Shown in pieces: positions 8,959 through 36,947 of a stretch of 43,815 nucleotides of DNA. Each line of letters begins with the position of its first letter. Position 1 is the first letter of the stretch. Origin of the DNA: Alphaproteobacteria bacterium (GTDB lineage: Bacteria > Pseudomonadota > Alphaproteobacteria > M2410); assembly GCA_021774955.1 (NCBI GenBank), contig JAJFIN010000106.1, forward strand, positions 1-43,815, read 5' to 3'. The notes under the pieces were generated by a model, which worked only from the letters and a program-made list of their open reading frames with translations, was not told the origin of the DNA and made no database searches. Made by a program: the position numbers and the translations under genes.

Positions 8959-9933
8959 ATGGTGATAATCATGTCTCAACACTTCCTTCTCTCAGCCCAA
9001 GCCCGGACCCTTTCACTGGCCAAGGTCTTCCGCATGTCCGACCAAGAAGCATTCGAGACCTTTAAGGCGATCCGCTGGGCGGATAATGACGGAGAGGCTT
9101 ATTGCCCACGGTGTGGCTGCACCAAGGTCTATGAGTACAAAACCCGCCGTATCTTCAAATGCAAGGACTGTGAGGCTCAATTCAGCGTCACCACGGCGAC
9201 AATCTTTGCAAGCCGCAAGCTGGCGATCCGCGACCTCTTGGCCGCTATTGCTATCTTTGTGAACGGGGCCAAGGGTGTTTCCGCTCTGCAATTGAGCCGC
9301 GATCTGGACGTGCAATACAAAACAGCCTTTGTGCTGGCCCACAAGCTCAGAGAAGCCTTGGGTGATGAGTTGAAGGCCCGCGAGCTGTCCGGTCATGTGG
9401 AAGTGGATGGGGCCTATTTCGGGGGCTATGTGCGCCCTGCCAATCGCAAGATCGACCGCAAAGACCGCCGCCTGTCACAGAACCGTACCGGCAAGCGCCG
9501 CGTGGTGGTGATTATGCGCGAGCGCAAGGGCCGGTCTTATCCCTTTGTCTGCAAGTCAGAGTCTCAATCAGTACCCACCATCTTAAAGCGTGTCGCTAAT
9601 GGCACCACGGTTTACGCCGACGAAGCATCATCTTGGGATGGTCTGCACGCTTCCTATGATGTTCGCCGCATCAATCACTCCATCCAATTCAGAGACGAAG
9701 ACGCCTGCACGAACCAAGCGGAAAGCTTCTTTTCGCGTCTGCGCCGGGCCGAGATCGGCACCCACCATCATATCAGCGGCAGGTATCTGCAATCATACGC
9801 AAATGAAATGGCTTGGCGCGAAGACAACCGCCGGGAAAGCAATGGCGAACAATATCTGATGGCCGTAACCGCCACTCTTAATCATCCGGTTTCCCGCCAG
9901 TGGAAGGGGTACTGGCAGAGAGCAAAGACTTAG
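8959..9933 (+). CDS. IS1595-family transposase (N-terminal zinc ribbon plus ISXO2-like DDE domain)
   Basis: Zinc-ribbon CPRCGC...CKDC, then typical IS1595 segments (FASRKL, VEVDGAYFGG, VYADEASSWD, HSIQF...NQAESFFSRLRR). Confidence 0.88.
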   Translation: MVIIMSQHFLLSAQARTLSLAKVFRMSDQEAFETFKAIRWADNDGEAYCPRCGCTKVYEYKTRRIFKCKDCEAQFSVTTATIFASRKLAIRDLLAAIAIFVNGAKGVSALQLSRDLDVQYKTAFVLAHKLREALGDELKARELSGHVEVDGAYFGGYVRPANRKIDRKDRRLSQNRTGKRRVVVIMRERKGRSYPFVCKSESQSVPTILKRVANGTTVYADEASSWDGLHASYDVRRINHSIQFRDEDACTNQAESFFSRLRRAEIGTHHHISGRYLQSYANEMAWREDNRRESNGEQYLMAVTATLNHPVSRQWKGYWQRAKT

Positions 9934-10051: not shown

Positions 10052-10139
10052 GGATGCGTGGTGGAATTGGTAGACACAGCGGTCTTTAAAACCGCCTCCT
10101 GATCAGGGATTGTGGGTTCGAGTCCCACCGCATCCACCA
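10052..10139 (+). tRNA. Class II (long variable arm) Leu-type tRNA with anticodon 5'-UUA-3' (ochre-suppressor type), CCA encoded
   Basis: Manual cloverleaf follows. Acceptor GGATGCG/CGCATCC has 7/7 pairs. The D arm is GTG-GAATTGGTAGA-CAC. The anticodon stem GCGGT/ACCGC has 5/5 pairs around the loop C-T-TTA-A-A. The variable arm is CTCCTGATCAGGGATT and the T arm is GTGGG-TTCGAGT-CCCAC. The discriminator is A, followed by CCA. Confidence 0.8.
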
Positions 10140-11573: not shown

Positions 11574-11703
11574 GGAATTCTCCCGCGGCGTTCTGGACTC
11601 CCTGCGCCAGCCTTTGGAGACCGGCGAAGCGGTGATCGCGCGGGCTAATGCCCATGTCACCTATCCTGCCCGGGTTCAGTTGATCGCGGCGATGAATCCG
11701 TGA
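11574..11703 (+). pseudogene. comM: comM middle fragment (between the two insertions)
   Basis: Continues the comM frame as (E)[41 protein letters not shown] and then stops at TGA 11701-11703, where ComM proteins normally continue with a Cys-rich segment. Confidence 0.85.
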
Positions 11704-13214
11704 GGTTTTGTTGCCTTGGCGTCGGACTTTAGCGAAGCTGGAATGTTAAGAAGATTGATTACGACTTCTTCTTTTCCAATAATGATTGTGTCCGTTATGG
11801 TTTCGATCAGCTGACGCTTTTCTGTCCTTGAGAACTGATCCCATCGATTAGCTAAATCTTGGACGTCTGACAGAGCGGCAGCGTCCGCTGTGCTTGATAT
11901 CCTCAGAACGTCAAGTTGCGCTTGGAGGCGTGGCAGTTCCTCTTCGAGCTGCGATTGTCGGAGCGACAATGGCTTATGACGCCGACCGAATGCTTCTTTG
12001 GTGAGTTCGTCTGCTATGTATAGCTCATAGAGACGATCATCCTCGGCGTTGAGCTTTTTCAATTCATCCTTGGCTGATTGGATCAGCGCCCCTTTTTCTT
12101 GGATTGCGTCGTTAGCCGCCTCAATATGTGCGGCAATTTCGTCAGGCGAGAGGAGGAATTGGGACAGCTGGTCGCGGTATACGGCCTCAAGATCAGTGAT
12201 CGGGATCTTATTCTTGCACCCAGAGCAGATGTACTTCAGGGCTGACGGTCTTGCATACATCTTGGTGCCACAGGCACAAAAGGCGTAGCCGGAGAATAGG
12301 TGTACATTCTCACGAGACGGCTTTTTGTGTGATGCTCGATGCCGTTCAAGTATTCCGCTGCACTCCTCCCACAGCTCTGTGCTTACAATCGCCTCAACGG
12401 GCGTCCAGACCCATTCGTTTTCGGGCTTAAGTTCCCATGACTTGGTACGGTCGTTGGTACGAGTATAGTTCTGGCGATAGAGGCCCTTTGCAGTTGGATC
12501 TCGAAGGAGACGATCCACCGTGGTGTCAGAAAAATGAGCGCCCTTTCGGGTTCGGTATCCACGTTCATTAAGGATTCGCGCGACTGTTTTCTTGCGGCGG
12601 TGCTCGGCAAAGAGTTCGTACATGAGCGCCCGGACGGAGCGTTCATTAGGATCTGGTTCAAGTTTCTTGTTGTTCCAGCGATACCCGAATGGTGCAGCGC
12701 CTCCAATAGGTCGTCCCAGCTTCGCGCGAATCGGGACTGAGGCGGCAACGCGCTCTGCGATTTCTTCTCGCTCCCACTGGGCCATTGCGGCGATGACCGT
12801 AAAGAAGAGGCGACCTGCAGGCGAGCTTGTGTCTATCGCTTCTTGAAGGGAGACCATGTCGGCTCCCGCATCGCGAAATGAATCTGCAAATTCAAGAAGC
12901 TCTTTGGTGTTGCGAGCGAGGCGAGCGATTTTGGAAAAGATGAGGCCGCTGATGTGACCTGAGTGAATGTCAGCGAGCATGCGTTTTGCTTCTGCATGTC
13001 CCATCACGGCTTTTCCACTTACTGCATCAAGCCGGTATACTTCGCGCACACGCCAACCACGCGCTTCCGCGTACATACGTGCACGTTTTTCATGCACCTC
13101 GGGACTTTCGCCCCTCACCTGATCTTCGGTTGAGACGCGAATCCAGATGCCAACTTGCTTTGGTGCTGAATCTCTGTATTTTTCCGTACTGTTTGCCATG
13201 GCCATACTCAACAC
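11676..13214 (-). CDS. Large serine recombinase (resolvase domain, recombinase domain, zinc ribbon, coiled coil), copy 1
   Basis: 512-aa ORF with the catalytic region [22 protein letters not shown] and a Cys cluster CACG...CSGC. Its last 8 codons and stop lie inside comM sequence. Confidence 0.9.
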
Positions 13215-13479: not shown

Positions 13480-15390
13480 ATGCCAAATTGCCACCCTCTG
13501 CAATATGAAATTTGGATCTACATTATGTGGCCACCAAAAAACAGTAACCGATCATTGGATGGCCCCCGCCCTATCCCCTTGAAGCTTCAAGAACAGTTAG
13601 CTCTGTGCGCTACCTTCCCAGAGCGCGTTCTATTTATCGATATAGAGACAACGGGCTTAAGCCACTATTACGACGAGATTACAATTGTTGGCTGGTCGTT
13701 TGGTGGACGGGCATCGACCTTTGTCAAAGGTCAAGACCTTAGTCTACTCCTGGAAGATGCTGCAAATGCCAAAATCCTTGTCACCTTTAATGGAATACGT
13801 TTTGACCAACGTTTTCTCCGTCAGGAGTTTCCAGAAATCGCACTGCCCGAGGCGCATATTGATCTCATGTATTTATGTCGCCGCGTTGGTCTGACAGGAG
13901 GGCAAAAGGCAATAGAAAATGAGCTGGGCTTGCTATTCAGAGAAGACATTGTGGGCGTCGATGGGTTTGCCGCGGTTCTTTTGTGGCATCGTTATCTTCG
14001 CGGAGATTTGGGTGCCCTTAAGTCGCTCATTCATTACAACCGTGCTGACATTGCGGCGATGGGAGCCATCCTTGATGATGTACTTTCACGGTTCATCATC
14101 AATCCTGACCTGTTTGCAACGCCCATTGAATTTCTACATTGGTCAGCACCTCCGGGTTGGCGTGAACTTCCGGAGGATTTGAAACCTGCATCTGAGGATT
14201 TGACCAAAGCACTGCGGTTTGTGGATATATTTGAGGCGACCCCTGCCAAAGATGCACGAATTGTTGGTATAGACCTTACAGGTTCAGAAAAGCGCGCAAC
14301 TGGTTGGTGTCTGCTGGATGGCTCATATGCGACAACAACATTGCTTACCTCTGACCAAGAGATTTTGGAGAGTACAATCGGCGCAAAACCCGATCTGGTT
14401 TCTATCGACTCTCCTCTTTGCCTTCCCTCTGGTCGCATAACAGTGGAAGATTCCGACCCAGGTCGAGAGCAATACGGTATTATGCGTCAATGTGAACGTG
14501 AGCTAAAAAAGCGCGGTATTAATGTTTATCCCAGCCTCCTTCCGAGCATGCAGAAGTTGACAGCGCGGGGCATATTCCTTGCACAGCAACTCAGGGAGAA
14601 AGGTATCCCTGTGATTGAAAGTTATCCAGGTGCTGCACAGGATATTATGCGCATCCCCCGTAAAGGGGCAGGGGTTGAATGGTTGCGGCTTGGTTTGAGT
14701 GATTTTGGTATCACTGGCGATTATCAAAACGAAAATGTTTCGCACGATGAACTTGATGCCATCACTTCGGCGCTTGTCGGAACATTTCACATGGCAGGTC
14801 TTTCAGAGGCACTTGGTACGGAAGAAGAACCGCCATTGATAATCCCAAAACTCGATAAAGAGCAGGGGCCATATGTGATTGGTATTAGTGGACCGATTGC
14901 GGCAGGAAAAACAACGTTTGCCCAGGCACTTGCAGACAAGGGGTTTGCCTATACTCGGTTTAGCCTGGTGATCGATGATATGCTTAGTAAGCAAGGTTTA
15001 GAGCTGGATCGCATCAACCGGCAAAAACTGGGGGGTGAAATCAATGCTGATGGTCGTCAACGTTGGTTGGCTGAACAGACTATCCGCAAGGTCGAAGGGG
15101 CTTCTCACATCGTGGTAGATGGTCTCAGGTTTCCCGAAGATCACGCCTATCTTGTCGAGAAATTTGGTGCTCGATTTCATCATATTTATATAGAAGCAGA
15201 CGAGGCTATCCGACGAAACCGCTATAACCAACGAGGAAAAGAGGGCGGTTTTGATGCTGCTTCAGGCTCGGACGTTGAGAAAAGGGTGATTGAACTAGCT
15301 TCGATCTCACATGAGAAATTTGTTAACAATGCGAGCAAATCAGATATTGTGAATCATGTAACTGATTTGATTCATGATATAAAAAGGTAG
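13480..15390 (+). CDS. Three-domain fusion: DEDDy 3'-5' exonuclease (YprB/RNase_H_2-like), DUF429-like RNase-H-fold domain and P-loop nucleotide kinase-like domain
   Basis: Exo motifs FIDIETTG, FNGIRFDQRF and HYNRAD. The middle domain has IVGIDLTGSEKRATGW, LVSIDSPLCLP and HDELDAITSALVG. The C-terminal part has Walker A GISGPIAAGKTT and VVDGLRFPED. Confidence 0.75.
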   Translation: MPNCHPLQYEIWIYIMWPPKNSNRSLDGPRPIPLKLQEQLALCATFPERVLFIDIETTGLSHYYDEITIVGWSFGGRASTFVKGQDLSLLLEDAANAKILVTFNGIRFDQRFLRQEFPEIALPEAHIDLMYLCRRVGLTGGQKAIENELGLLFREDIVGVDGFAAVLLWHRYLRGDLGALKSLIHYNRADIAAMGAILDDVLSRFIINPDLFATPIEFLHWSAPPGWRELPEDLKPASEDLTKALRFVDIFEATPAKDARIVGIDLTGSEKRATGWCLLDGSYATTTLLTSDQEILESTIGAKPDLVSIDSPLCLPSGRITVEDSDPGREQYGIMRQCERELKKRGINVYPSLLPSMQKLTARGIFLAQQLREKGIPVIESYPGAAQDIMRIPRKGAGVEWLRLGLSDFGITGDYQNENVSHDELDAITSALVGTFHMAGLSEALGTEEEPPLIIPKLDKEQGPYVIGISGPIAAGKTTFAQALADKGFAYTRFSLVIDDMLSKQGLELDRINRQKLGGEINADGRQRWLAEQTIRKVEGASHIVVDGLRFPEDHAYLVEKFGARFHHIYIEADEAIRRNRYNQRGKEGGFDAASGSDVEKRVIELASISHEKFVNNASKSDIVNHVTDLIHDIKR

Positions 15391-15395
15391 GAATT

Positions 15396-16439
15396 ATGCC
15401 AGTTTCAATCGTAGTCGGTGGCCAGTTTGGCTCTGAGGGCAAAGGCAAAATATCACTCGAACTCGCCAGACAGTCGAAATCTCCAATAACTGTCGTTCGT
15501 GTGGGCGGATCAAATTCCGGACACACTGCATATAATCGCGAGGGCAAGAAATATGCGCTGCGGCAATTGCCTGCTGGCTGCATAGATCGAAACGTTGATG
15601 TGGTTTTCCCAGCAGGTGCCTATATCGATGTTAACATTTTGCTTGATGAAATCGAACAACTTCAATTTCCCAGGGATCGCATCAAGATAAGCAGTTTTGC
15701 TCGAATTATTACCTCTGAGCACAAAGCTTGGGAGCGAGAGGCTGGCCTCGGCGGCGCAATTGGCTCGACCGGTTCAGGCGTTGGTGCGGCGGTCATGGCA
15801 TCCGTCGCCCGGGGGGCCGCAAACTTCAAATTGCATTCATTGGATGCCGAACATTCTGGCAAGCTGGAAGAATTCCTTTGTGATTCCTCAGATCTCCTTC
15901 GCAAACGCCTAGACAAAGGATGCCGTGTTATTATCGAAGGCTCTCAGGGCTTCGGGCTTTCTTTACTCGAAGGTGGGTATTGGCCAAAAGCAACCTCACG
16001 GTCAACTACAGCAGCGGCAGCGCTTACAGAAACAGGCCTTAGCCCGCGTGACGTGGATGACATCACGATGGTTCTTCGTTCGTATCCGATCAGGGTAGCT
16101 GGCGAATCCGGACCTCTTCCAGGAGAAACAACCTGGGAAGAAATTGCTCAAACGGTAGGAATGAATGAGGACATTCGGGAATACACCACTGTTACGAAAA
16201 AACTCCGCCGTGTCGGCCGGTTTGATGCTGAACTGGTACGCCGTGCCCTCACCGTGAACGCGCCAACTCGTTTGGTGTTGAACCATATGGACTATATTGG
16301 CTCGATTGATGAGCTGAGTGACCCGAAAAGCAGACTAAGGCAGTTTATATCTGGGCTCGAATTTGATATCGACCGCAAGATCGATTGGTTTGGCTTCTCT
16401 GGGTTTGATGTGGCTCAAGCTGAAAGCCATGTCGCGTGA
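15396..16439 (+). CDS. Short-form adenylosuccinate synthetase homologue (PurA/PurZ-like)
   Basis: 347 aa. It carries GGQFGSEGKGK (canonical GDEGKGK with Asp replaced by Ser), GGSNSGHT, GSTGSGVG, EGSQGFGLS, GESGPLPGE and TTVTKKLRRVGRFD. It is about 80 aa shorter than bacterial PurA. Confidence 0.8.
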   Translation: MPVSIVVGGQFGSEGKGKISLELARQSKSPITVVRVGGSNSGHTAYNREGKKYALRQLPAGCIDRNVDVVFPAGAYIDVNILLDEIEQLQFPRDRIKISSFARIITSEHKAWEREAGLGGAIGSTGSGVGAAVMASVARGAANFKLHSLDAEHSGKLEEFLCDSSDLLRKRLDKGCRVIIEGSQGFGLSLLEGGYWPKATSRSTTAAAALTETGLSPRDVDDITMVLRSYPIRVAGESGPLPGETTWEEIAQTVGMNEDIREYTTVTKKLRRVGRFDAELVRRALTVNAPTRLVLNHMDYIGSIDELSDPKSRLRQFISGLEFDIDRKIDWFGFSGFDVAQAESHVA

Positions 16440-17584
16440 CGGATAAGTCTAGTGAGGTCCCGGAATCCGAGCCCGAGCCCGAGCCCGAGCCCGAAGAAGC
16501 GCTGTATATTGACCGGGCAACCGCAAAAGCAACGGCTGAGAAGTTTGGTAAGGATGGAGTAGACCCGAATCCATCAATACCTCACTCCCTGTTATCTGCA
16601 GAGCACATACGTGATTACGTTAAAAGAACGGGTCTTATCGGACCATATAACAATGGAACTGGAGCAAAGACACGGCTCAAAAAGGCTGCATATGAAGGAA
16701 GAATTGGCGAACACGCCTATTTATTCAACAAAGAGGGTGTTCTAGAAGAGTGCTTTCTTGAGGGCGGCCTCCTGGTTCCGGCCAACTCTATTGTTTTCGT
16801 TGAATGTGATTTGGACTTCCGTCTCCCCGAATTTATCGCTCTACGATTTAATCTCCAAATTAGACACGTGCACAGAGGGTTGTTGCTAGGAACGGGACCT
16901 TTGGTAGACCCAGGCTATTGGGGGAAGTTGTGCATACCCTTGCATAACCTGACTGACGAAGATTACCTAATTCCACTTGATGAAGGACTCATTTGGCTGG
17001 AGTTTACAAAAACAACGTCTAATCTGGGTGTTCGAGACAAGGCTATTGGGCGAGCGCCTCTTGGTAAGGAATTCTGGGATATTCAGGAATTCATTACCAA
17101 GGCTCAAAAGCCGTATAGTGGAATTGGAAGACACCCCCCCATTCGTAGCTCTATGGGTGCTATGGTTACAAATATGTTTGAAGAGGCCAAGAAGAAGGCT
17201 GACACGGCTATATCACGTGTGCGACTAATATTGGGTCTGGGGGGTGTTGCTGTTATTGGTATTACCATAGGTGTTTATCAATTATGGGCTGCATATGTTT
17301 CAATGTATGATAGACAGTATGAAGAGCTTCGGCAGCCGTTAATTCAACTTCAGAATAATGTTGCGGACATAAATAGACAGCTTCAAAACTCGGAAGACAG
17401 CGCTACTGTCCAACCTGAGTTCTCCTTGCTATTAAAAGAATTGCAAACGATGACCACTAAGATTGAGTCACTCAATCAAAACAGTGCATTGCTCGAACGT
17501 ATTCTAAATCTTGAGAATGAATTGAGTATCATTCGATCTGAGTTAACACCGAGTAGCGCTGAAGGAACTAAGCTTGCAGAATAG
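16436..17584 (+). CDS. dCTP deaminase/dUTPase-fold protein with C-terminal TM helix and coiled coil
   Basis: GTG start overlaps the upstream stop (GTGA). An acidic EP repeat sits at the N-terminus. The Dcd/Dut-like core is PANSIVFVECDLDFRLP...GPLVDPGYWGKLCIPLHNLT. The TM segment is LILGLGGVAVIGITIGVYQLWAAYV, followed by a heptad-like tail. Confidence 0.7.
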   Translation: MTDKSSEVPESEPEPEPEPEEALYIDRATAKATAEKFGKDGVDPNPSIPHSLLSAEHIRDYVKRTGLIGPYNNGTGAKTRLKKAAYEGRIGEHAYLFNKEGVLEECFLEGGLLVPANSIVFVECDLDFRLPEFIALRFNLQIRHVHRGLLLGTGPLVDPGYWGKLCIPLHNLTDEDYLIPLDEGLIWLEFTKTTSNLGVRDKAIGRAPLGKEFWDIQEFITKAQKPYSGIGRHPPIRSSMGAMVTNMFEEAKKKADTAISRVRLILGLGGVAVIGITIGVYQLWAAYVSMYDRQYEELRQPLIQLQNNVADINRQLQNSEDSATVQPEFSLLLKELQTMTTKIESLNQNSALLERILNLENELSIIRSELTPSSAEGTKLAE

Positions 17585-18293
17585 ATATGCCGGGGATATT
17601 GGCGACTATATAAAGCTGGCCCTTCTGCGGCATCTCTCCGTAGGTAAAAATCTCGGTATCGCTTGGTATCTACATCCTGACGAGAATCTTAATTCGGATG
17701 GGAAACACACCAGTTATCTCACCGACAAGGAGAAATGGCGTCCGCTTGATCCCGAATTGTTCGACACCCTCACGAAAGTGGTTTCAAAGACCCGATCAAT
17801 TGCAGCACTCCAAACCTCTGGCATGTTGAATGCTGTTTATTGGAGTGAGCCGCTGGCAATAGCTTCTGTGCTCGCGAGCAAGCGGTGTGATTATCGATCT
17901 AGATGGTTTAATGCCGCTTTGAAACAATTGAAAACATGCAATCTTATTTTTGCTGATCCCGACAATGGAATTATCGATGATGGCGAACATCGCAGGCGGC
18001 AACCGACCTTCGGAAAACAAATGCCTCTGTTCGAAGTGTTGACGATTTCAAATAGCAGAACTGCTATTATCTACCACCATAACACCCGTTTCAAAGGCGG
18101 GCATGATGCTGAGGTCGATCACTGGCTAGCCCAATTGGGGCCGGATGCCATAGCAGTGAGAGCGAACGCCTATAGTTGCCGCACGTTCTTCATTGTTAAT
18201 CCTGATATAGAAACCAAAAATAGGGCAGAGGGTTTTTGCAAGCAGTGGTCCGATCATAAGGTAAGACTGCATCTTTCACTAAACGACCGGTGA
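17574..18293 (+). CDS. Hypothetical protein, fourth gene of the operon
   Basis: 239-aa ORF with a TTG start and an 11-nt overlap with the upstream gene. GAAGGAA lies 9 nt upstream. Motifs GDIGDYIKLALLRHL and LIFADPDNGI resemble motifs of RlmJ-like methyltransferase folds, but only loosely. Confidence 0.6.
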   Translation: MQNRYAGDIGDYIKLALLRHLSVGKNLGIAWYLHPDENLNSDGKHTSYLTDKEKWRPLDPELFDTLTKVVSKTRSIAALQTSGMLNAVYWSEPLAIASVLASKRCDYRSRWFNAALKQLKTCNLIFADPDNGIIDDGEHRRRQPTFGKQMPLFEVLTISNSRTAIIYHHNTRFKGGHDAEVDHWLAQLGPDAIAVRANAYSCRTFFIVNPDIETKNRAEGFCKQWSDHKVRLHLSLNDR

Positions 18294-18893: not shown

Positions 18894-19406
18894 CTACCGA
18901 TTATGTAGCGACGCGAAGTGCGTAATCGCAAGTGCCGCAGCATTAAAGAGTCCCATTCGCGGATCTTCACTCATCCAAGGCTTTCGCACCGGGGGTAGCT
19001 TGTGACCCAGACCTTCAACACAATCCAATACAGCAAGTGCAATCTCATGACGCGTTTTGTCCTGTTCTCCGTAAAAGTGGTTGCTGACATCTGCACGGGT
19101 AAGGACTTTCACTTTGATGCCCTTTTTCTTGGCGAGTGATACCAAGGAGCGGCAGAGTTTTTGTATCCGTTGAGAGCGGCGTGAGGATATGCTTTCGTAT
19201 TCCTCCAATACCAGTACCCTCGGTTTATATTTATCAAGTAGCGTTTTGGCCTTTTTGATAGAGTCTCGGTTCTTATCCTTATGGACCGTCGCAATACCCC
19301 AATCGACTAGGAGTTCAGGACCCTCAAACAGCACCCAGCCAAAGCCTTTGGTAGTGGGATGGATTGCGAGAACCAGTTGGTTTCTGCCTACGATATTCTG
19401 CTTCAT
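18894..19406 (-). CDS. RuvC-like (RNase H fold) protein with substituted catalytic positions
   Basis: 170 aa. LAIHPTTKGFGWVLF aligns with the RuvC IDPG strand, VLVLEEYE with the RuvC Glu strand, and FNAAALAITH with the RuvC DAADALAIAITH helix. The Asp positions read His and Asn. Confidence 0.5.
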   Translation of the reverse strand: MKQNIVGRNQLVLAIHPTTKGFGWVLFEGPELLVDWGIATVHKDKNRDSIKKAKTLLDKYKPRVLVLEEYESISSRRSQRIQKLCRSLVSLAKKKGIKVKVLTRADVSNHFYGEQDKTRHEIALAVLDCVEGLGHKLPPVRKPWMSEDPRMGLFNAAALAITHFASLHNR

Positions 19407-19750
19407 ACGTCAGTTTGTTCACGCTCCAGGCGTGTGATGATTGACTTAATAAAGTCTCGTTTCGCAGCAGAAGCTGCGCCTTGTCTGGCAACGAGTCGTT
19501 CGAGGAGTTTTTCTGCTCTCGCGCAGGCGGCGCGTTCAATATTGGTGTAGAGGTGGGGAAACAACTCACATGCCTTCACGCCAAAGACGATCTCACATCC
19601 AATGATGAAATCCACGCTTGGTGTGCGCGTCAGAGACTCGTATTTTGAAATTACCGTTGACGTAAGGCCAAATAGAATTCCCAACTCCTCCTGCGTTAGT
19701 GCATTACGTCTTCGATACGTGTGAAGGTAGCTGGGAAGTGAATTAGGCAT
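19403..19750 (-). CDS. XRE-family helix-turn-helix protein
   Basis: HTH segment LTQEELGILFGLTSTVISKYESLTRTP. Its stop overlaps the start of the downstream gene by 4 nt. Confidence 0.75.
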   Translation of the reverse strand: MPNSLPSYLHTYRRRNALTQEELGILFGLTSTVISKYESLTRTPSVDFIIGCEIVFGVKACELFPHLYTNIERAACARAEKLLERLVARQGAASAAKRDFIKSIITRLEREQTDV

Positions 19751-20184: not shown

Positions 20185-21690
20185 ATGAAAAAGTATTTAG
20201 CGTACGTCCGCGTCTCAACGGTGAAACAAGGCGAGCGGGGGTCATCGCTTCAAGAGCAACGCAGCGCCATCGAGGCTTTTGCTCAACGGCAAGGGCTCAC
20301 CGTTACCACATGGTTTGAGGAAACCGAGACGGCTGCCAAGCAGGGAAGGCGCATATTTTCTCGCATGCTCCGGCTTCTTGAGCATGGCGAAGCAGACGGT
20401 GTCGTTATTCACAAGATCGACCGGAGCGCCCGCAACCTCAAAGACTGGGCAAACCTTGGCGAGCTCATTGATCGAGGCATCGATGTGCAATTTGTCCACG
20501 ACAGCGTTGATCTCCGTTCCCGAGGAGGCAGGCTCTCTGCTGATATTCAGGCTGTCGTCGCCGCAGACTATATCCGCAACCTTCGTGATGAGGTGCGCAA
20601 GGGGTTTTATGGCCGCCTCAAGCAGGGCCTCTACCCCTTACCTGCTCCGATCGGATACCTAGATAGGGGGCCGGGCAAGCCCAAAGAGCTTGACCCGGTT
20701 CGTGCACCACTGGTGCGCCAAGCCTTTGAGCTCTACAGTACCGCGACCGTTGGACTGAAAAAACTACGTATAGAATTGAACCGACGAGGTTTGCGGTCGA
20801 GAAGTGGAAAACCGCTTTCTCTCACTGGCCTCTCAACGATGCTCAACAACCCTTTCTACATGGGCCTGATCCGCATCAGGCGTACCAACGAAACATTTGA
20901 GGGTGTTCACCAGCCTCTGATCTCTAAAGCGCTCTTTGATCGTGTCCAAGCGATCCTTCGTGGGAAAACCGTTTCTCGAAGCGTCAAGTACGACTTTGTC
21001 TTTCGCCGCTTTGTTCGTTGTGCCTCCTGCAAATACCACCTGATCGGTGAACGACAAAAGGGTCATGTTTATTACCGCTGCCACAGTGAAGGGTGCAAGG
21101 GAACCTGTATTCGAGAAGAGGTTTTGGATGAGGTAGTACAAAGTGCCCTAAAGCTTTTAGTCTTCGATACTAAGGAGATGCAGGAACTCAGTGCACTTGC
21201 CGACGAGGCGAAAACGCGTGATGTGGGTGACACCGAGAAACTACGGGCATCAATCAATATGCGCCTCGTTAAATGCGAAGAGCGGATGGTACGTCTGACT
21301 GATGCCCTTGTTGATCGGCTTATTGACAAAGAGCTGTTTGAATCTCGCAAGCTTGCCTTGTTCAATGAGAAGCGGGAGTTGGCCGATCAATTAGAGAGAT
21401 TGTGTGATTCAGAGGCTCCGGCGAATGTAGCGTTCAAAAACCTCGAACTCGGAAATGTCGCGTATTCTGGATATAAAGAAGGAATTCCGCTTGAGCGCCG
21501 CGCAATCATAGAATCCGTTACCTCGAACCTTGTTGCGCAGAGAAAAAACCCAGTAATTAAAATGAAATCTCCGTTTCAAGAGATCATAAATTGGCGGAAA
21601 TCGTTAAACGGTGCACCGTATCGAGGCGACACTCGAACGAGAATGAAGCAGCTTCTTGCTATTCTAACGGAGGGTGACAATAAGACATAA
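20185..21690 (+). CDS. Large serine recombinase, copy 2
   Basis: 501 aa with YVRVSTVKQ, IHKIDRSARN, a recombinase domain and the zinc-ribbon Cys cluster CASCKY...CHSEGC. Confidence 0.9.
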   Translation: MKKYLAYVRVSTVKQGERGSSLQEQRSAIEAFAQRQGLTVTTWFEETETAAKQGRRIFSRMLRLLEHGEADGVVIHKIDRSARNLKDWANLGELIDRGIDVQFVHDSVDLRSRGGRLSADIQAVVAADYIRNLRDEVRKGFYGRLKQGLYPLPAPIGYLDRGPGKPKELDPVRAPLVRQAFELYSTATVGLKKLRIELNRRGLRSRSGKPLSLTGLSTMLNNPFYMGLIRIRRTNETFEGVHQPLISKALFDRVQAILRGKTVSRSVKYDFVFRRFVRCASCKYHLIGERQKGHVYYRCHSEGCKGTCIREEVLDEVVQSALKLLVFDTKEMQELSALADEAKTRDVGDTEKLRASINMRLVKCEERMVRLTDALVDRLIDKELFESRKLALFNEKRELADQLERLCDSEAPANVAFKNLELGNVAYSGYKEGIPLERRAIIESVTSNLVAQRKNPVIKMKSPFQEIINWRKSLNGAPYRGDTRTRMKQLLAILTEGDNKT

Positions 21691-22393: not shown

Positions 22394-23164
22394 TCAGTTC
22401 GGCAATTGCGGTGGATCCGAAACCCTTTGCCGATCGAAATGGGCTTCCAATATCGTATCTAAACTATCGATATGACTGCTCGCGGCAGAAAGCTCAAAAA
22501 TGTCACTTCTATTGCTTATGCTTGAGGCAAGTTCTCCAAATTCTTTGGAATTGGAGTCGTTCTTTACCAAGCAAACTATTTCAGAGCGCTCAAAGAGTGG
22601 CATATCAGAAGTCGTGTCGCCGATTGCGATCAAAGCACTGCTGACCGGACCAAGCTCAGCTGAAGTGGCAATTCTCTTGTCTCTTTTGGTGCCATGAGTT
22701 TTAACCTCGATTTCTCCGCTTATCGATTGAGCGATGGTCACACCATAAATTCGGTCTATTTGAAGCTTTTCAGAGTATGCGCTTAGAACAATGGAAGGTG
22801 CCCCACTTACTATAACTATGTCAGTGTTGCGACTTTTGATTGTCGAAAGTAAATCATGGGCAAACGGCATAAGCTTTCTGTCAGATTCCACAAATTCTGA
22901 GGCGGCATTTTCTAATCTTTCGACTTCTACGTCTCTAATTAGTTCTGCATATGCGTTAGCAGCAAGCACCACTCCTTCCTCATAGCTTATTTGACCACTA
23001 GCAAATGATTTATAGTGTGCTCTGAGCAAATCTTCATTTTTCCAATTCACGATTTGACGGGAAATCAAAAAATCTGCCCAATCGAAAATTAGATATCCTT
23101 CGCGTAAGGTGCCATCCCAATCGCAGAGACAAATATTCACAAATGGCTTTTTTGGTTTCCTCAA
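22394..23164 (-). CDS. HAD-superfamily hydrolase (HAD-IB/SerB-like)
   Basis: Motif I CDWDGTL, motif II VSGAP, motif IV GDTTSDMP. Confidence 0.75.
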   Translation of the reverse strand: MRKPKKPFVNICLCDWDGTLREGYLIFDWADFLISRQIVNWKNEDLLRAHYKSFASGQISYEEGVVLAANAYAELIRDVEVERLENAASEFVESDRKLMPFAHDLLSTIKSRNTDIVIVSGAPSIVLSAYSEKLQIDRIYGVTIAQSISGEIEVKTHGTKRDKRIATSAELGPVSSALIAIGDTTSDMPLFERSEIVCLVKNDSNSKEFGELASSISNRSDIFELSAASSHIDSLDTILEAHFDRQRVSDPPQLPN

Positions 23165-23622: not shown

Positions 23623-25647
23623 ATGAAGAAAATCGATTTACACGTTCATACAAAGTCAGCTGATAGAGAACGTTCAATCGTGTTCGATTTAGAGCGTCTC
23701 AGCGAGTACGTCCAAGTGCGTGAGATAGATTGTGTCGCAATAACCAATCACAATGAATTTGATCTCGTTCAGTTTGAGGAGATCCAATCAACTCTCAACA
23801 TCCTTGTTCTTCCTGGAATCGAGATGGACCTTGAAGGTAGTCAGATACTTCTCATTGGTGACGCATCTAACCTTGGTGATTTCGATTCAAAATGCCAAAA
23901 GATCCAAGAACGACAGCCGAACAAAAGAGATTCTGTTTCGGTCGAAGAGTTAAAGGAAATTTTCGGGGATCTATCCAAATATCTCTTGATACCGCACTAC
24001 GACAAGAATCCAGCTATTAAGGATGGAACACTTAATGCTTTGGGTCCTGACGTTAACGCAGGTGAAGTCGCGAGCCCAAAAAAATTCATGTACTGCATAC
24101 GCAATGACGACAAGCTTGTGCCGGTCTATTTCAGTGATTGTCGTATCGAAGAGTCTCTGACGGAATTTCCCATACGACAAACCTATATTTCGTGTGATGA
24201 ATTGAATTTATCGACCATTAAAAATTGTCTCCGCGACAAGAGTAAGGTTGCACTGTCCTTCAATGATGGGAACGATATTTTTCAAGTTTTTGATGATGGG
24301 CAGCATATATCAACAGGATTGAATGTGATTCTTGGTGAGCGTTCCACGGGGAAGTCGCACACCCTTAAGAGAGTCCGGGACGCGATATCAAACGCCAAGT
24401 ATTTGGAGCAATTTTCTTTAGTGGCAACCGACGATCAAGAGGACGAAAGACGATTCAACCGATTTCTGAGCGACAAACACAGTCTCTTCTCTCGAGAGTA
24501 TTTGGCAGAGTTACAACAAGTTGTGAATGATGTAGTCGAGATCGACCTTGACGCAGATTTGAGACGAGTTGATGTATACCTCAAGTCGTTAAAGAAACAT
24601 GCGAAAGAGTCGGAGAAACACGATGCATTTTCTCGGGCGAAGCTTTTCAGCGAAGAAAAATATCCAGATACCAAACAAACAGGACTAGAGGATTTGATTG
24701 GGTCTACCCAGAACCTAATTGAAAACGTTGAATTCAAAGACACGATTGAAAAGCATGTGTCAATTCAGCATTTGAAAGCGCTTATCGTCGAGTTGATGAC
24801 GCTATATGCAACAAGGGAACAAGAACGTCTAAAGAAAAGATGGGTTAACGAACTAGTTTCGGAAATTAAAGCCAAACTACAAGTACGAACCGCGGCTACA
24901 GTTATTACTGATCTTGATCTCTATGACATTGCGATGAACAAGGTTCGTGTTGAAAAGTTTGAGCGTATAGTGGAGGCAGCTAGAAAACCTAGGGAACTTT
25001 TGCGTAAACCATTGCAAGGCTTTGAACTCGTCGCGACAGCGGGCGAATTCGAAGGTGCTGGGCGGCTAAAAAGGCTAAGTCGTCTGACGGTAGCGTTTTC
25101 AGACGCGTATAAGGTTTATTCAGAACCTTATCGGTTTCTTCAGGCCCTCAAAGAGATTGATGGGTTGGCAGAACAGGATTTATACAAGTACTTTGTCAAA
25201 ATCGACTTCAAAATACTAAATCAAGACGGATATGAAGTATCTGGCGGTGAAAGATCAGAGTTCAATCTTTTGCAGGAAATTCAGGATGCCCAAAATAATG
25301 ACATACTTCTAATTGACGAGCCTGAGTCTTCATTTGACAACCTCTTCCTTAAGGACAGCGTCAATGAAATTATTCGAGAAATTGCCAAGAACATGCCTGT
25401 CGTTTTAGTTACTCACAATAACACTGTAGGGGCATCAATAAAGCCTGCGTATCTTCTTTATACGAGCAAAGAGATGGAGAACGGCAAGGTCGTTTATCGA
25501 ATTTATTCGGGGTTCCCAACAAATAAGCAACTGCAATCGATAGATGGGAAGGCTGTTAGTACATGGGAAGTGACGATGGGTTGTTTAGAAGCAGGGGTCG
25601 ACGCTTATAATGATCGAAGTAGAGGCTATGAAGATATTAAAGATTGA
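23623..25647 (+). CDS. PHP-domain phosphoesterase fused to an ABC/OLD-type ATPase (PplA-like architecture)
   Basis: PHP motifs IDLHVHTKSAD, VAITNHNEF, LPGIEMD and LIPHYDK. The ATPase part has Walker A GERSTGKSHT, ABC signature VSGGERSEFNL, Walker B ILLIDEPESSFD and H-loop VLVTHNN. Confidence 0.75.
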   Translation: MKKIDLHVHTKSADRERSIVFDLERLSEYVQVREIDCVAITNHNEFDLVQFEEIQSTLNILVLPGIEMDLEGSQILLIGDASNLGDFDSKCQKIQERQPNKRDSVSVEELKEIFGDLSKYLLIPHYDKNPAIKDGTLNALGPDVNAGEVASPKKFMYCIRNDDKLVPVYFSDCRIEESLTEFPIRQTYISCDELNLSTIKNCLRDKSKVALSFNDGNDIFQVFDDGQHISTGLNVILGERSTGKSHTLKRVRDAISNAKYLEQFSLVATDDQEDERRFNRFLSDKHSLFSREYLAELQQVVNDVVEIDLDADLRRVDVYLKSLKKHAKESEKHDAFSRAKLFSEEKYPDTKQTGLEDLIGSTQNLIENVEFKDTIEKHVSIQHLKALIVELMTLYATREQERLKKRWVNELVSEIKAKLQVRTAATVITDLDLYDIAMNKVRVEKFERIVEAARKPRELLRKPLQGFELVATAGEFEGAGRLKRLSRLTVAFSDAYKVYSEPYRFLQALKEIDGLAEQDLYKYFVKIDFKILNQDGYEVSGGERSEFNLLQEIQDAQNNDILLIDEPESSFDNLFLKDSVNEIIREIAKNMPVVLVTHNNTVGASIKPAYLLYTSKEMENGKVVYRIYSGFPTNKQLQSIDGKAVSTWEVTMGCLEAGVDAYNDRSRGYEDIKD

Positions 25648-26525: not shown

Positions 26526-28937
26526 TTAAGCAATTTGAAGATCAACTGCATCAATTCGGTTTGAAGTCTTCGTTTGATGATGATTAGTCGGCGCGTTTTT
26601 GGCCAAACCTAGCTCGATTAGTTCAAATTCGTCAATCTTTCTTAGATGGTATTTAGTTTCCACTCCATTGGCATTCTTATCGCTAAGTGGGAAGAGCTGA
26701 AAGCTATGGAAAAAGTCTAGCTGTCTATCCTTTGCGTTTAGTAGCAGTTCTAAGTAGTCGTCACCAACTTTTGCGCGGCGTGATATTTCCAGCAATCTAT
26801 TTCGAAAAGACTCTATTTGAACAATATCTTCTGAGTTCAACGCTAGTTCTGTAGCTCGACTCAAAATCGTGTCGAGTGTCCCTATTGCTTCATCAAGCAG
26901 CGACGTGTCCTGACATTCAGGGTGTTTAAAGTATTCGTATAAACATAGCGCTCGACCAAAGGAAACTCGCAACCAAAACTCTGGCATTTTGTTGATAGAA
27001 ATTGAGGAAAGTGCGAATCCATAGGCCCCTAGTGCCAACTTAAAAGCGTCGCTCTGCCTCTTTCTATTTTCAAGGCTAGCAAGCTGATGAAGTATGAATG
27101 CTCGGAATGCCCCGCTGTTAGCCCTAAGCAGCTCACGTTGTTCTTGGCTTGATGGGTCTGGAGCCTCGTTGACGGTCTCCAGCGCTTCGTCAAATGCCTC
27201 AAGTGCTTTCTTTAGCTCCTCAGCGCGCGGTTTCCCTGTTCGAATGCTTGCCAATCTAAAATAGGCATGGCCAATATGGTTGTGTATCCTTATCCAGTCC
27301 AGAGGTTTCGGAACTTTCCCGTTCAGTGCTGACTTACTTTGAGTAAATGCTTCAATAGCACCCTTGAGCAATTTCTTACGCTTCGATTGGCTTTTGATGC
27401 TGGCAAGCTTCAGAAGCACCACCCCTAAATAGAATTGTATTTCCCGCCACTGGTCTTTTGCATCTTCCTTGGTCCAAACCAAGCTTGCTAGTTCGAAGGC
27501 TTTAGCAGCATCCTCGAGCCGTTTTAACCGATTCTTGCTGGTATCTTGGGCGGCTAAGCCGAGTAGAGCCAGACCGTATATGCTCTGAGTTAATGCCCAC
27601 TGCAATTTAAATGAATATCTTTTCAGCACCGGTAGAGCACTGGCAAATGCCTTTGTCGCCGTCTCCAGAGTTTCCTGTCGTGCGCTACCCGCAAGTCGAG
27701 ATGCCAAGCCTACACAAACAATGCCATACAGGCTTTCGGTCATCGACTGTAGCACTAACGTGCCTTCCCCTTTCCATGCTTCTATGGCTGCAGAAAGCTC
27801 TTTCAAAGCCGCTTGGAATAGGCTGAGACCCCTATCTTCGCCACCCTTCAGAGGTGCGAGTATCAAATATAAAATACCCAGAAGAGACCTAATGCTTGCG
27901 TATTCAGCTCCATGGTCTCTTGGCATCCAAATCTCTAACGCCTCTTGGGTTGAGCCAATTGCTTCCTCGACACCTTTGATTTTGTCCTGTTTTTCCTCCA
28001 TTGCCGAAAGTGACAAGCGAGCCAAGCTAAAAGACATAAGAACTACTGAGCGATTATCCCCGGTTAGGGCTGTATTTTCCATTTCTAGAAAATTACGCAG
28101 CTGTTCAACGATGGGCCTCAATACTACATTAAGTTCAGTCAGACGCTTTTTGTCTATTGTAGGGCCCTCAATTGTACTCAAGGAGAAGTCCTGGAGTGGG
28201 CTTATAGACGCAACAATTTGTGCCACTAATGCAGCACAAAGCGCGTCATTCACGCCTTCCCTGAATTCGACAATTATTGGAGTAACAGCGCTTTCCAAAT
28301 CCTCTGCTTGCAGGTGGAGAGGTAGGAAATACAATTCATAGCGCGCTCTCTCTTTGTCCGACATTAAATTATACTTGCCCCATACGAGAACATCCGCATT
28401 CTTATCGGCAAGTAGCTCTCGACGTTCTTTTAGTTTGGCTTCGAACTTCTTTGGATTATTCGTGGGGAGAGGTTTTAGGGTTTTTCTCAGACGACGGACT
28501 TCAATACCTTTTGCTGTCTTTTGTCTTGTCAAAAATGCCCATAATCGTATGGGAATTTGCTGCCAGCGGTTGAGCCCAAAATTTTTGTTCAGGTAATCCA
28601 CCAATGCAGTCGTGTTTTTCTTCTTTCGGTTGTCCCCCTCTAAGTTGGCGACAAAGATAGTCAAAATCGTCTTCTTAGAGGGGCGCATGAGCCTTATTCC
28701 GACTAGTATCGCTCCCCACGTTAAGAAGGGTAAAACAACGTAGTAGAATAGCTGATTAGTAATAAACCGTTGCAAAAAGTCTATTGTTGGTCCTACCCAC
28801 GACGGGGGAAGGAACGTGCTGAGGAATATCTCAAGCTTCTCAAGGACTCCATTTGCGGTAGAGACCATTTTTGAAATCAGACTGTTTAGGGTGTTGACGA
28901 TATTGCCACACTCCATCAGCCTATTCCTTCCGTACAC
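26526..28937 (-). CDS. Membrane-anchored helical-repeat (TPR-like) protein
   Basis: 803-aa ORF with N-terminal hydrophobic helices (FYYVVLPFLTWGAILVGIRL). It continues as about 550 aa of repetitive helical A/L/E-rich segments (recurrent AL.A...AL pattern). No P-loop or catalytic motif seen. Confidence 0.65.
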   Translation of the reverse strand: MYGRNRLMECGNIVNTLNSLISKMVSTANGVLEKLEIFLSTFLPPSWVGPTIDFLQRFITNQLFYYVVLPFLTWGAILVGIRLMRPSKKTILTIFVANLEGDNRKKKNTTALVDYLNKNFGLNRWQQIPIRLWAFLTRQKTAKGIEVRRLRKTLKPLPTNNPKKFEAKLKERRELLADKNADVLVWGKYNLMSDKERARYELYFLPLHLQAEDLESAVTPIIVEFREGVNDALCAALVAQIVASISPLQDFSLSTIEGPTIDKKRLTELNVVLRPIVEQLRNFLEMENTALTGDNRSVVLMSFSLARLSLSAMEEKQDKIKGVEEAIGSTQEALEIWMPRDHGAEYASIRSLLGILYLILAPLKGGEDRGLSLFQAALKELSAAIEAWKGEGTLVLQSMTESLYGIVCVGLASRLAGSARQETLETATKAFASALPVLKRYSFKLQWALTQSIYGLALLGLAAQDTSKNRLKRLEDAAKAFELASLVWTKEDAKDQWREIQFYLGVVLLKLASIKSQSKRKKLLKGAIEAFTQSKSALNGKVPKPLDWIRIHNHIGHAYFRLASIRTGKPRAEELKKALEAFDEALETVNEAPDPSSQEQRELLRANSGAFRAFILHQLASLENRKRQSDAFKLALGAYGFALSSISINKMPEFWLRVSFGRALCLYEYFKHPECQDTSLLDEAIGTLDTILSRATELALNSEDIVQIESFRNRLLEISRRAKVGDDYLELLLNAKDRQLDFFHSFQLFPLSDKNANGVETKYHLRKIDEFELIELGLAKNAPTNHHQTKTSNRIDAVDLQIA

Positions 28938-36080: not shown

Positions 36081-36947
36081 TTACCTGCGAAATCGAACCT
36101 CGTATGACGCTTCGAGTTCGGCGTCCTCATCAAGTTCGGCTTGATCAAGCTCATCGGGAGTATAGAGCACGGTAAGAGTTTTGCCGTAATCTCCGAGTCC
36201 TTTAACCTCCTCGTAGAGCTCTGTATCCCAGCCACTCTCAAACCACGAGGCAAGGTTTGTCGTGCCATTGACACGTTGGGCAGACTTCACATTGTTTGCG
36301 TCTAAATTGAATCGTTCGGTTGCAGTACCTCCTGGCACTAGCTGCCCCTTCCTGATCCATTGTAGCCCGTCCAGTTCCCGAAGCGAGTCGGACATAAAGC
36401 CATATTCAATGTGCTGCCCCTTGCTTACTACAATCGCGGTGGGAATTTTGGCAAGGGCTGCATAGCGAATAGCAGTAGCTGGCAGTGAGGTCTCACATTT
36501 TATGGAGAGCGCTTCGACCGCATCAAGGCCATCTCCCATATACTTCAGTTCTTTTGAGCACAGATGCTCGGGCATCAGGAGACCTGCACTAAAGAAATCA
36601 GCTTCTTGTTCATACTTGTCATATGACGTAAATCCAGCGTGCGAATAGTGTGTAGTTTGTCCGTCTGCAAACAATTGTTCAATATGACCAGAAAGCATGT
36701 AATGCCCAAGCTCATGCCCAACGCAAAAATGCTGAAAGCCTTCGCTCTTAATGTGCGTAGCGTATACAATCGCAAATTCATTCCCCATACGCAGCAACAT
36801 ACCCGAGACGCCCTCTGATGAGGGTGGCTTGGCACACACCTCAATGTCCAAGCTTTGGGCAATTGCAATCGGATCTACCGGAAGCGCAGTGATCTTACGC
36901 TCCTTAATAAAATTCTCAGCAACATGGGCTGCAAGGTGTGGGAGCAT
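36081..36947 (-). CDS. ImmA/IrrE-family zinc metallopeptidase with C-terminal extension
   Basis: HEXXH motif VGHELGHYML plus EQEADFFSAGLLMP, typical of ImmA/IrrE. Its start abuts the stop of the upstream XRE gene. Confidence 0.8.
   Translation of the reverse strand: MLPHLAAHVAENFIKERKITALPVDPIAIAQSLDIEVCAKPPSSEGVSGMLLRMGNEFAIVYATHIKSEGFQHFCVGHELGHYMLSGHIEQLFADGQTTHYSHAGFTSYDKYEQEADFFSAGLLMPEHLCSKELKYMGDGLDAVEALSIKCETSLPATAIRYAALAKIPTAIVVSKGQHIEYGFMSDSLRELDGLQWIRKGQLVPGGTATERFNLDANNVKSAQRVNGTTNLASWFESGWDTELYEEVKGLGDYGKTLTVLYTPDELDQAELDEDAELEASYEVRFRR

Follow-up and report, generated by a model that had tools for sequence, protein, structure and literature searches.

What purpose is served by a bacterial operon that places a homologue of adenylosuccinate synthetase between a nuclease–kinase fusion and a membrane-tethered protein with the fold of dCTP deaminases (Dcd) and dUTPases (Dut)? 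The question is raised by contig JAJFIN010000106.1 (assembly GCA_021774955.1) of an Alphaproteobacteria bacterium from the M2410 lineage, which was analysed over its whole length of 43,815 nt (hereafter the window) and in which four co-directional genes form a cassette:

Gene 1, 13480–15390, plus strand: 636 aa, fusion of a DEDDy 3'-5' exonuclease, a DUF429 (RNase-H-fold nuclease) domain and a P-loop domain resembling nucleoside monophosphate (NMP) kinases
Gene 2, 15396–16439, plus strand: 347 aa, short, Ser-type adenylosuccinate-synthetase homologue of the PurZ0 type
Gene 3, 16436–17584, plus strand: 382 aa, Dcd/dUTPase fold without the deaminase Glu, with one transmembrane (TM) helix and a C-terminal coiled coil
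Gene 4, 17574–18293, plus strand: 239 aa, accessory protein, Rossmann-type fold with a distant resemblance to the m6A methyltransferase RlmJ

The coordinates of the open reading frames (ORFs) confirmed the tight packing described in the initial annotation of this DNA, with a 5-nt gap between genes 1 and 2, a 4-nt GTGA overlap between genes 2 and 3, and an 11-nt overlap between genes 3 and 4; no terminator-like sites above chance were found inside the cassette. The set is a horizontally mobile cellular conflict cassette and most likely an anti-phage system, either of the abortive-infection or of the nucleotide-pool type. Until now, PurZ-type enzymes were regarded as peculiar to phages, and archaeal PurA as their closest relative in cells; what now emerges is a large and diverse cellular clade with the PurZ signature, embedded in a conserved cassette within defence islands together with a dUTPase-fold protein, with deoxynucleotide kinases and with either nucleases or a DarT-like enzyme. 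This suggests that PurZ-type chemistry and nucleotide-pool immunity are brought together here in a new cellular combination.

The synthetase homologue, its membrane-tethered partner and the fusion protein

Gene 2 matches Adenylsucc_synt (PF00709; E 2e-52), and its closest matches in the PDB are P. horikoshii PurA and Archimedes PurZ0. As had been noticed from the DNA alone, it belongs to the short size class and carries Ser in its P-loop (GSEGKG), which replaces Asp13 of PurA in the window as it does in each of the 76 full-length cassette copies. At this position, Ser was counted in 123 of the top 150 relatives from 1.84 billion representative proteins, Gly in four, Leu in one and Asp in none; 22 were unscorable. 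In PurA, Asp13 is 99% conserved, and Ser is universal at the same place in 147 phage PurZ/PurZ0 enzymes (PMC12884076). These counts set gene 2 outside housekeeping PurA; that assignment was rejected on the invariant Ser and on scores far under the PurA equivalog cut-offs (TIGR00184, 208.2 vs 395.55 bits; PRK04293, 240.2 vs 368).

The other catalytic positions are kept (K16, N38, H41, T129, R143, Q224, T239, V273 and R305), as is the GTP-specifying Asp333 found in both PurA and PurZ0, where PurZ has Asn. Two further traits are common to PurZ and PurZ0 and absent from PurA, namely the loop that follows V273 (PIRVaGxSGpL..ETtW) and the exchange of R303 for Lys, with residue 303 being K in 44 of the 76 copies, R in 15 and N in six. 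This region has been tied to 2'-deoxy selectivity in the phage enzymes, in which R303 is shifted from its contact with the 2'-OH (PMC8342488). Mean identity of the cassette enzymes was 42% to PurZ0, 38% to archaeal PurA from P. horikoshii, 35% to PurZ and 34% to E. coli PurA; PurZ0 for its part is closer to them than to archaeal PurA (36%). In a neighbour-joining tree of 210 relatives (100 bootstraps), the Ser-type enzymes stood apart from two Asp-type PurAs (87%) and PurZ0 formed a clade of its own (98%). Judged by sequence identity, the nearest characterised relatives of gene 2 are thus the phage PurZ0 enzymes; its product is probably PurZ0-like in mechanism rather than a member of the phage families, and would be an active, GTP-using enzyme that joins aspartate to a guanine deoxynucleotide.

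Two observations concern relatives of gene 2 elsewhere. The GenBank note on purZ of phage phiVC8 (locus L083, 2992–4023) reads "similar to Solibacter usitatus YP_827486", i.e. its best match was bacterial; this protein is possibly a member of the cassette family, and a Bryobacterales locus (L013) carries the cassette. In addition, three metagenome loci with long flanks (L120, L141 and L151) contain Ser-type synthetase genes and none of the cassette partners, which points to further contexts for PurZ-type enzymes.

By sequence, gene 3 gave only a faint dCTP_deam match. Its AlphaFold model (predicted local distance difference test score, pLDDT, of 78) retrieved Dcd-Dut, Dcd and archaeal dUTPases in Foldseek at E 8e-12 and target-normalised TM-scores of 0.7–0.8, in agreement with the Dcd/Dut core recognised earlier. 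The protein is divided as follows:

Dcd/Dut-fold domain, 16562–17020, plus strand: residues ~43–195
Transmembrane segment, 17207–17299, plus strand: residues ~258–288, Kyte–Doolittle peak 2.15
C-terminal helical/coiled-coil tail, 17303–17581, plus strand: poorly conserved, of variable length

Within the domain, the block RFNLQIRHVHRGLLLGTGPLVDPGYWGKLCIPLHNLT is invariant or nearly so across phyla, and the motif-III Asp (VDPGY) is invariant among the homologues. The suspected loss of the Dcd catalytic Glu proved correct: the position of the T-L-E motif (E138 in E. coli) is held by Pro168 (CIPLHN), invariant in 29 homologues. A true dCTP deaminase was rejected on this replacement and on a TIGR02274 score of 17 bits vs a cut-off of 92.8. 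The best sequence match is a Dcd-like dUTPase from the archaeon Thermococcus, which also lacks the Glu. The proposed TM tether and coiled coil were likewise recovered, with a single hydrophobic peak at residues ~250–295 in 29/29 homologues (above the TM threshold of 1.6 in 28), followed by long helices and a tail that varies in length. Profile comparison with the Herb DutZ fusion (hhalign) indicated remote similarity (E 1e-4, probability 55%). Every PurZ0 phage pairs PurZ0 with a dUTPase-fold DutZ, which makes dGMP and dAMP (PMC12884076), and the gene 2–gene 3 pair can be regarded, by analogy, as the cellular counterpart of PurZ0–DutZ. As a separate observation, some loci of Mesorhizobium, Bradyrhizobium and Sphingomonas (L020 6690–7754, and also L024, L034 and L042) have a further Dcd-like paralogue, divergent in sequence (PF22769, 1e-5), inserted between genes 2 and 3.

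The three-part composition assigned to gene 1 in the initial annotation was upheld, and the motifs quoted there are invariant in 67 homologues:

Exonuclease domain, 13630–14076, plus strand: residues 51–199, PF13482 (RNase_H_2, DEDDy), E 2e-27
DUF429 domain, 14230–14844, plus strand: residues 251–455, PF04250, the best-conserved part of gene 1
Kinase-like domain, 14845–15387, plus strand: residues 456–636, with P-loop GKTT and a DGLRFP motif

DUF429 was weak on the whole protein and reached 24 bits against a cut-off of 23 with the isolated domain; it was matched in 36 of 37 family members. The kinase-like domain matched AAA_18 (2e-11) and also AAA_33. In at least 97% of the 67 homologues, the exonuclease residues D54, E56, D109, Y186 and D190 and the DUF429 residues D265, D310, H422, D423, E424 and D426 are kept, and the same holds for the P-loop (GKTT) and for Gly and Arg in DGLRFP, a motif like that of adenylate kinases. 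Searches of PDB sequences with gene 1 and with a DUF429 profile gave nothing usable, i.e. no solved DUF429 relative by sequence. The start codon at 13480 is uncertain because the first ~46 residues are not conserved among the homologues and the exact product is not in the protein collection. Look-ups by exact sequence yielded no names for the proteins of the window.

Distribution and variants of the cassette

A gene 3 profile was run against one genome per species for 185,579 species, which yielded 193 confirmed matches; the counts of genome loci given here refer to the best 80 of these 193. The cassette occurs patchily, in ~0.1% of species genomes and on mobile islands, and gene 3 has >1,200 homologues, hardly any of them with a name. 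In 66 of the 80 loci, the fused form of gene 1 stands together with genes 2 and 3, nearly always in that order and across at least 10 phyla, with gene 1 split into separate ORFs in three further loci. The hosts comprise Alpha-, Beta-, Gamma-, Delta- and Zetaproteobacteria, Acidobacteriota, Cyanobacteria, Nitrospirota, NC10, Binatia, Bacteroidota and Actinomycetota. An independent metagenome scan was seeded on gene 2, and its counts were restricted to loci with enough flanking DNA: gene 3 followed gene 2 in 49/55 loci with enough downstream DNA, DUF429 preceded gene 2 in 40/50 with enough upstream DNA, and a deoxynucleoside kinase (dNK, PF01712) came directly after gene 3 in 18 of the 32 with both flanks. 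These neighbour counts identify gene 1, gene 2, gene 3 and dNK as the common environmental form; the window, with gene 4 as the fourth gene, holds the rarer version of the cassette. Genes 1–3 thus co-occur widely in both genomes and metagenomes. Of the four genes suggested to act as one functional unit, these three form a conserved cassette, and the four are no obligate unit: gene 4 is optional, and genes 2 and 3 are found alone on a plasmid.

Besides the nuclease-bearing form of the window, type A, there are three others. Type B, found in Herbiconiux, Microbacterium and Chryseosolibacter, lacks both exonuclease and DUF429 and consists of an M78 peptidase, which may or may not carry a Macro domain, a fusion of the kinase-like domain with gene 2, DUF7002 and gene 3; some copies further contain dNK or a MazG/PRA-PH pyrophosphohydrolase, the one in L058 being MazG-like. 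Its loci are:

L058, 8830–12527, minus strand
L076, 3327–6061, minus strand
L081, 76–5584, plus strand

DUF7002 carries H-x-S/T and VFFW motifs, by which it was assigned to the "Lmac_3114" family of DarT-like ADP-ribosyltransferases (ARTs). According to the available text of a 2025 survey, this family adjoins an "adenylosuccinate synthetase" in 60% of its neighbourhoods, and a version of the neighbourhood that contains NUDIX exists in P. aeruginosa (PMC12522546). Type C consists of genes 2, 3 and 4 only, with a MerR regulator or a resolvase upstream. Finally, the conjugative Sinorhizobium medicae plasmid pMl2 carries only genes 2 and 3 (L089 4853–6915), among AbiEii and toxin–antitoxin genes, where the PGAP/RefSeq names are "adenylosuccinate synthetase" and "hypothetical protein", respectively; the former name is probably misleading for the whole gene 2 clade. 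The invariant core is therefore the pair of genes 2 and 3, around which one DNA-acting module can be exchanged for another. A kinase-like domain usually accompanies this core and is joined to the nuclease protein or, in L058, L076 and L081, to the synthetase; in L049 and L075 it is an ORF by itself.

The surroundings of the other loci are dominated by type I restriction–modification (R-M), RosmerTA, SoFic, HipA, AbiEi, LmuA, McrBC, Fic, integrase and transposase genes. Most loci are chromosomal islands beside R-M and toxin–antitoxin genes, not transfer genes, and no phage structural or replication genes recurred beside the cassette in the genome loci.

Proposed pathway and competing explanations

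Operon structure, gene association, intact active-site residues, folds, the defence-island surroundings and the absence from phages are seen in the data; the enzymatic activities, substrate, trigger and phenotype of the nucleotide-converting pathway described here are all inferred. The cassette would be an anti-phage module in which deoxyguanosine nucleotides are channelled to dGMP and from there to succino-2-aminoadenine or 2-aminoadenine (Z) deoxynucleotides, with loss of dGTP and GTP and poisoned replication, a reading to which we assign a probability of about 0.4. Its constant engine would be the PurZ0-type synthetase together with the membrane-tethered gene 3 protein. On activation, the latter would hydrolyse dGTP to dGMP, as do DutZ and MazZ of Z-genome phages, and the two nuclease domains of gene 1 (DEDDy and DUF429) would free more deoxynucleoside monophosphates (dNMPs) from DNA, an equivalent job being done in the variants by deoxynucleoside kinase, MazG or NUDIX. 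Gene 2 would then use GTP and aspartate to convert dGMP to N6-succino-2-amino-dAMP, from which host PurB would produce dZMP, and the NMP-kinase-like domain of gene 1 together with host Ndk would yield dZTP. In sum, dGTP and GTP would be lost while 2-aminoadenine (or succino) deoxynucleotides flood the cell; by entering replicating DNA or blocking it, these would stop the phage, and the host cell would be sacrificed. The accessory gene 4 would be optional, and its product may bind an adenine-like base with a substituent at N6.

A route via dGMP is the most economical model because dNK, MazG, NUDIX, exonuclease and Dut-fold protein all handle dNMPs and the synthetase with the PurZ signature is constant. 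When expressed in E. coli, a phage Z-cluster is toxic and Z enters DNA made by cellular polymerases, which do not discriminate against dZTP (PMC8342488); for these reasons, the pathway could bring replication to a halt through depletion, poisoning or a combination of the two. The nucleotide-converting defence module coupled to nucleic-acid attack, as first proposed, agrees with all the findings and is strengthened by the PurZ0-like active site, the variants with dNK, MazG or NUDIX and the PurZ0–DutZ pairing; it is retained here as a candidate function.

Several points weigh against this pathway. The universal membrane anchor of gene 3 is not accounted for by the model, and an interchangeable DNA-acting module (nuclease, DarT-like ART or none) is more typical of a sensor–effector arrangement than of a supply enzyme; both are better explained by signalling. 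The replacement of the nuclease by a DarT-like ART in type B weakens the notion that the nuclease supplies nucleotides and opens the signalling alternative. Motif II of gene 3 reads QIRHVHRG, within a near-invariant block of ~40 residues, and is not the Arg-Ser-Ser phosphate motif of dUTPases, so the protein may bind nucleotides without hydrolysing them. Gene 2 scores under the cut-off of the PurZ model NF038379 (242.8 vs 300 bits; NCBIfam), and backbone supports of 0–10% in the neighbour-joining tree leave its position relative to PurZ0 and PurZ open, for which reason no claim is made on the order of descent of the three. No PurB homologue was found in 160 loci or in the window, so that formation of dZ depends on the host. 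Neither a trigger nor a means of self-protection was identified, and the case is built from sequence, structure prediction and gene context.

Signalling would work as follows: gene 2 and the kinase domain make a base-modified nucleotide, i.e. a succino-2-aminoadenine nucleotide or a phosphorylated derivative, as second messenger; the altered Dcd fold of gene 3 binds it and the membrane helix disrupts the membrane; and the nuclease in type A, the DarT-like ART in type B and gene 4 in type C serve as effectors, in its place or in addition. Base-modified deoxynucleotide signalling by dITP in Kongming and the membrane-spanning effectors of CBASS and Pycsar are precedents. We consider this the main rival of the pathway, though less likely. 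It would account for swappable DNA-targeting modules around the constant core of genes 2 and 3, and for a gene 3 protein that lacks both the Dcd Glu and the motif-II Ser of dUTPases and is nevertheless extremely conserved and always membrane-anchored, with a faint, non-significant SLATT_6 match over its TM region (E 0.08). On the other hand, the pool-feeding enzymes (dNK in more than half of the metagenome loci, MazG, NUDIX and exonuclease) speak for a bulk flux and not for a signal in trace amounts, one TM helix with a coiled coil is untypical of a pore-forming effector, the fusion of the kinase-like domain to nuclease (type A) or synthetase (type B) fits a pathway enzyme over a receptor, and gene 3 keeps the motif-III Asp of active dUTPases without exception. 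No CD-NTase or cyclase signal synthase of the CBASS/Pycsar type was detected in any cassette gene. The position of the cassette between recombinases and on a conjugative Sinorhizobium plasmid could instead speak for self-modification, in which dZTP would give the carrier island, plasmid or integrative and conjugative element partial 2-aminoadenine and an escape from restriction, i.e. anti-restriction and not defence. The enzyme set does parallel the phage Z-clusters, and Z blocks roughly half of the tested type II restriction enzymes according to the available text of PMC12944874. This explanation is nonetheless quite improbable, given that the cassette has neither a dATP-removing (DatZ-like) enzyme nor a dedicated polymerase, Z-cluster expression is toxic to cells (PMC8342488), the nuclease/DarT-like modules and the membrane anchor are left without a role, and the loci mostly lie near R-M and toxin–antitoxin genes rather than transfer genes.

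Ordinary purine metabolism, with gene 2 as a second PurA isozyme or a salvage enzyme among nucleotide-metabolism genes, agrees with the name given to the plasmid copy and with catalytic residues that are intact besides Asp13. It is very improbable in view of the Ser at this essential position in all copies, the score of 208 against the PurA equivalog cut-off of 395.55, the patchy occurrence on mobile islands, and the fusion or coupling of gene 2 to nucleases and a membrane protein. Next to no credence is given to a decayed Z-genome prophage, i.e. a leftover phage Z-cluster, despite PurZ0 being the closest characterised relative of gene 2 (42%) and likewise paired with a dUTPase-fold enzyme: a search of 50,697 phage records and of IMG/VR found no relative of gene 3, no phage protein is more than 39% identical to gene 2, no phage structural or replication genes recur alongside, and the cassette is intact and strongly constrained across phyla. 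The remnant was rejected.

PADLOC-DB v2 and the NCBIfam anti-phage models returned no matching system and nothing on genes 2, 3 and 4; membership of any PADLOC system was rejected, as only sub-domains matched (dCTPase kinase domain, 1e-9; DEDDh, 3e-6; PDC-S44, 2e-4). Literature searches on adenylosuccinate synthetase, PurZ, DUF429 and DUF7002 in connection with defence turned up no account of the cassette, save for a passing note in PMC12522546. The earlier statement that no named system has this combination therefore holds for the databases searched and needs one amendment, namely that this paper noted the co-occurrence of synthetase and ART. The Lmac_3114/DUF7002 operons reported in it are the type-B form of the cassette family, as distinct from type A of the window, which has no ART. 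In its available text, the synthetase is not recognised as PurZ-type, the Dcd-fold membrane partner is not mentioned, and purine synthesis is proposed to regulate ART activity.

One of the closest known systems is the PurZ0 Z-cluster of Arthrobacter, Gordonia and Microbacterium phages (PurZ0 and DutZ, with or without DmtZ; PMC12884076, and Tong et al. 2023 as cited there). It shares with the cassette a short, Ser-type synthetase homologue that keeps the GTP-type Asp333 and the RVAGxSG...ET(T/S)W loop, a partner from the dUTPase superfamily, and a lyase step left to the host. Unlike this cluster, the cassette is cellular rather than viral, with gene 2 37–42% identical to PurZ0; its partner is Dcd-like and membrane-tethered, whereas DutZ is a soluble classical dUTPase (hhalign 1e-4); and it has the exonuclease–DUF429–kinase fusion and neither a DpoZ polymerase nor DmtZ. 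The PurZ/MazZ/DatZ cluster of S-2L and phiVC8 (PMC8342488) likewise has Ser for Asp13, Lys for R303 (K267 in phiVC8) and the loop insertion by V273, and its pyrophosphohydrolase feeds dGMP, with a MazG-like enzyme present in cassette variant L058. It differs in the Asn333 of PurZ, which uses ATP/dATP as donor, against Asp in gene 2, in the presence of DatZ, which the cassette lacks, and in an identity of 35%.

Nucleotide-depletion defences are exemplified by the anti-phage dCTP deaminase, which has an N-terminal kinase domain, and by dGTPase. In its kinase part, the former is similar to the kinase-like domain of gene 1 (PADLOC "dCTPase" model, 1e-9), and the predicted outcome, loss of a deoxynucleoside triphosphate (dNTP), is of a like kind. 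The cassette differs from them in having no cytidine-deaminase or HD domain (NF041025, 13 bits vs a cut-off of 400) and in its proposed chemistry, a ligation that creates a new nucleotide rather than simple degradation. As in Kongming, a homologue of a purine-metabolism enzyme and a nucleotide kinase would make a non-canonical deoxynucleotide during infection; unlike Kongming, the cassette has no adenosine deaminase, SIR2 or HAM1-like parts, and its kinase is encoded in the cassette and not by the phage.

If the cassette is a defence system, it embodies a new chemical principle in bacterial immunity, in which a canonical dNTP is converted to a non-canonical one; known nucleotide-pool defences destroy it. 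The cassette also bears on the origin of phage Z-genome biosynthesis, and its enzymes may serve for making Z-DNA. That bacteria use de novo Z or succino-Z deoxynucleotides as an immune weapon, and that the cassette is the closest cellular relative, possibly source or sink, of phage PurZ0/PurZ, is a doubtful proposition. If true, it would be categorically new: the origin of Z-genomes would be linked to bacterial immunity, and the chemistry with which Z-genome phages protect their DNA would be turned against infecting phages.

Gene 4, RlmJ and the island of the window

Gene 4 had been left without a nameable family, and none was found for it in Pfam, NCBIfam, PHROGs or PADLOC; its 850 homologues are all unnamed. 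The AlphaFold2 model (pLDDT 91.6) has E. coli RlmJ entries as its sole significant structural neighbours (Foldseek E 4e-4, TM-score ~0.5), with ADPDNG at the position of the RlmJ DPPY motif. Identity with RlmJ m6A methyltransferase was rejected: PF04378 was not matched, ADPDNG is not DPPY/F, and the likeness is at fold level only. Profile comparison of gene 4 with cassette-linked RlmJ (hhalign) was not significant (probability 1.2%). Gene 4 occurs in 29 of the 80 genome loci, in variable position and on either strand, and is an accessory and not a core component.

A canonical RlmJ (PF04378, DPPFE motif) stands beside gene 1 in 19 of the 80 genome loci, and in 13 of those 19 it is accompanied by a conserved ORF of ~98 aa without known family (RLHDYG...WRDLM..IHA). 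The pair is present in L007 (3676–4799), L008, L020, L021, L024, L027, L029, L030, L042, L051, L066, L070 and L072, as well as in metagenome loci L094 and L099; in L102 and L130, RlmJ alone lies beside the cassette. Because the pair travels with the cassette through changes of gene order, it seems unlikely that RlmJ is a mere conserved chromosomal neighbour.

In the window, the cassette sits in a lower-GC island and is flanked by two large serine recombinases, at 11676–13214 (minus strand) and 20185–21690 (plus strand). It had been described as the only cargo next to one such recombinase; three small ORFs share the interval between the two, of which the cassette is the main but not the sole cargo. 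Between the cassette and the second recombinase (18894–19750, minus strand), a 170-aa ORF without family overlaps the stop of a 115-aa Xre-type helix-turn-helix ORF, and these are not conserved beside the cassette elsewhere. The A+T-richer island with defence-type genes was confirmed, and the following share it with the cassette:

PDC-M49A, 23623–25647, plus strand: full-length match to the PADLOC candidate, E 9e-285
CapP-like M78 peptidase, 36081–36947, minus strand: match 3e-56
HerA/mad8-like ATPase, 37822–40560, minus strand: match 2e-13

A HAD hydrolase (22394–23164) and an 803-aa ORF without assignment (26526–28937) lie near the PDC-M49A gene. An IS1595 transposase (8959–9933) and a tRNA are close to the cassette island. 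This tRNA (10052–10136, plus strand) is full-length and class-II-sized (Rfam, 59.6 bits), with the anticodon loop CUUUAAA, and lies at the low-GC island edge beside the transposase; its anticodon UUA would read the UAA stop codon, and it may act as a suppressor or else mark an integration site, its anticodon having been altered.

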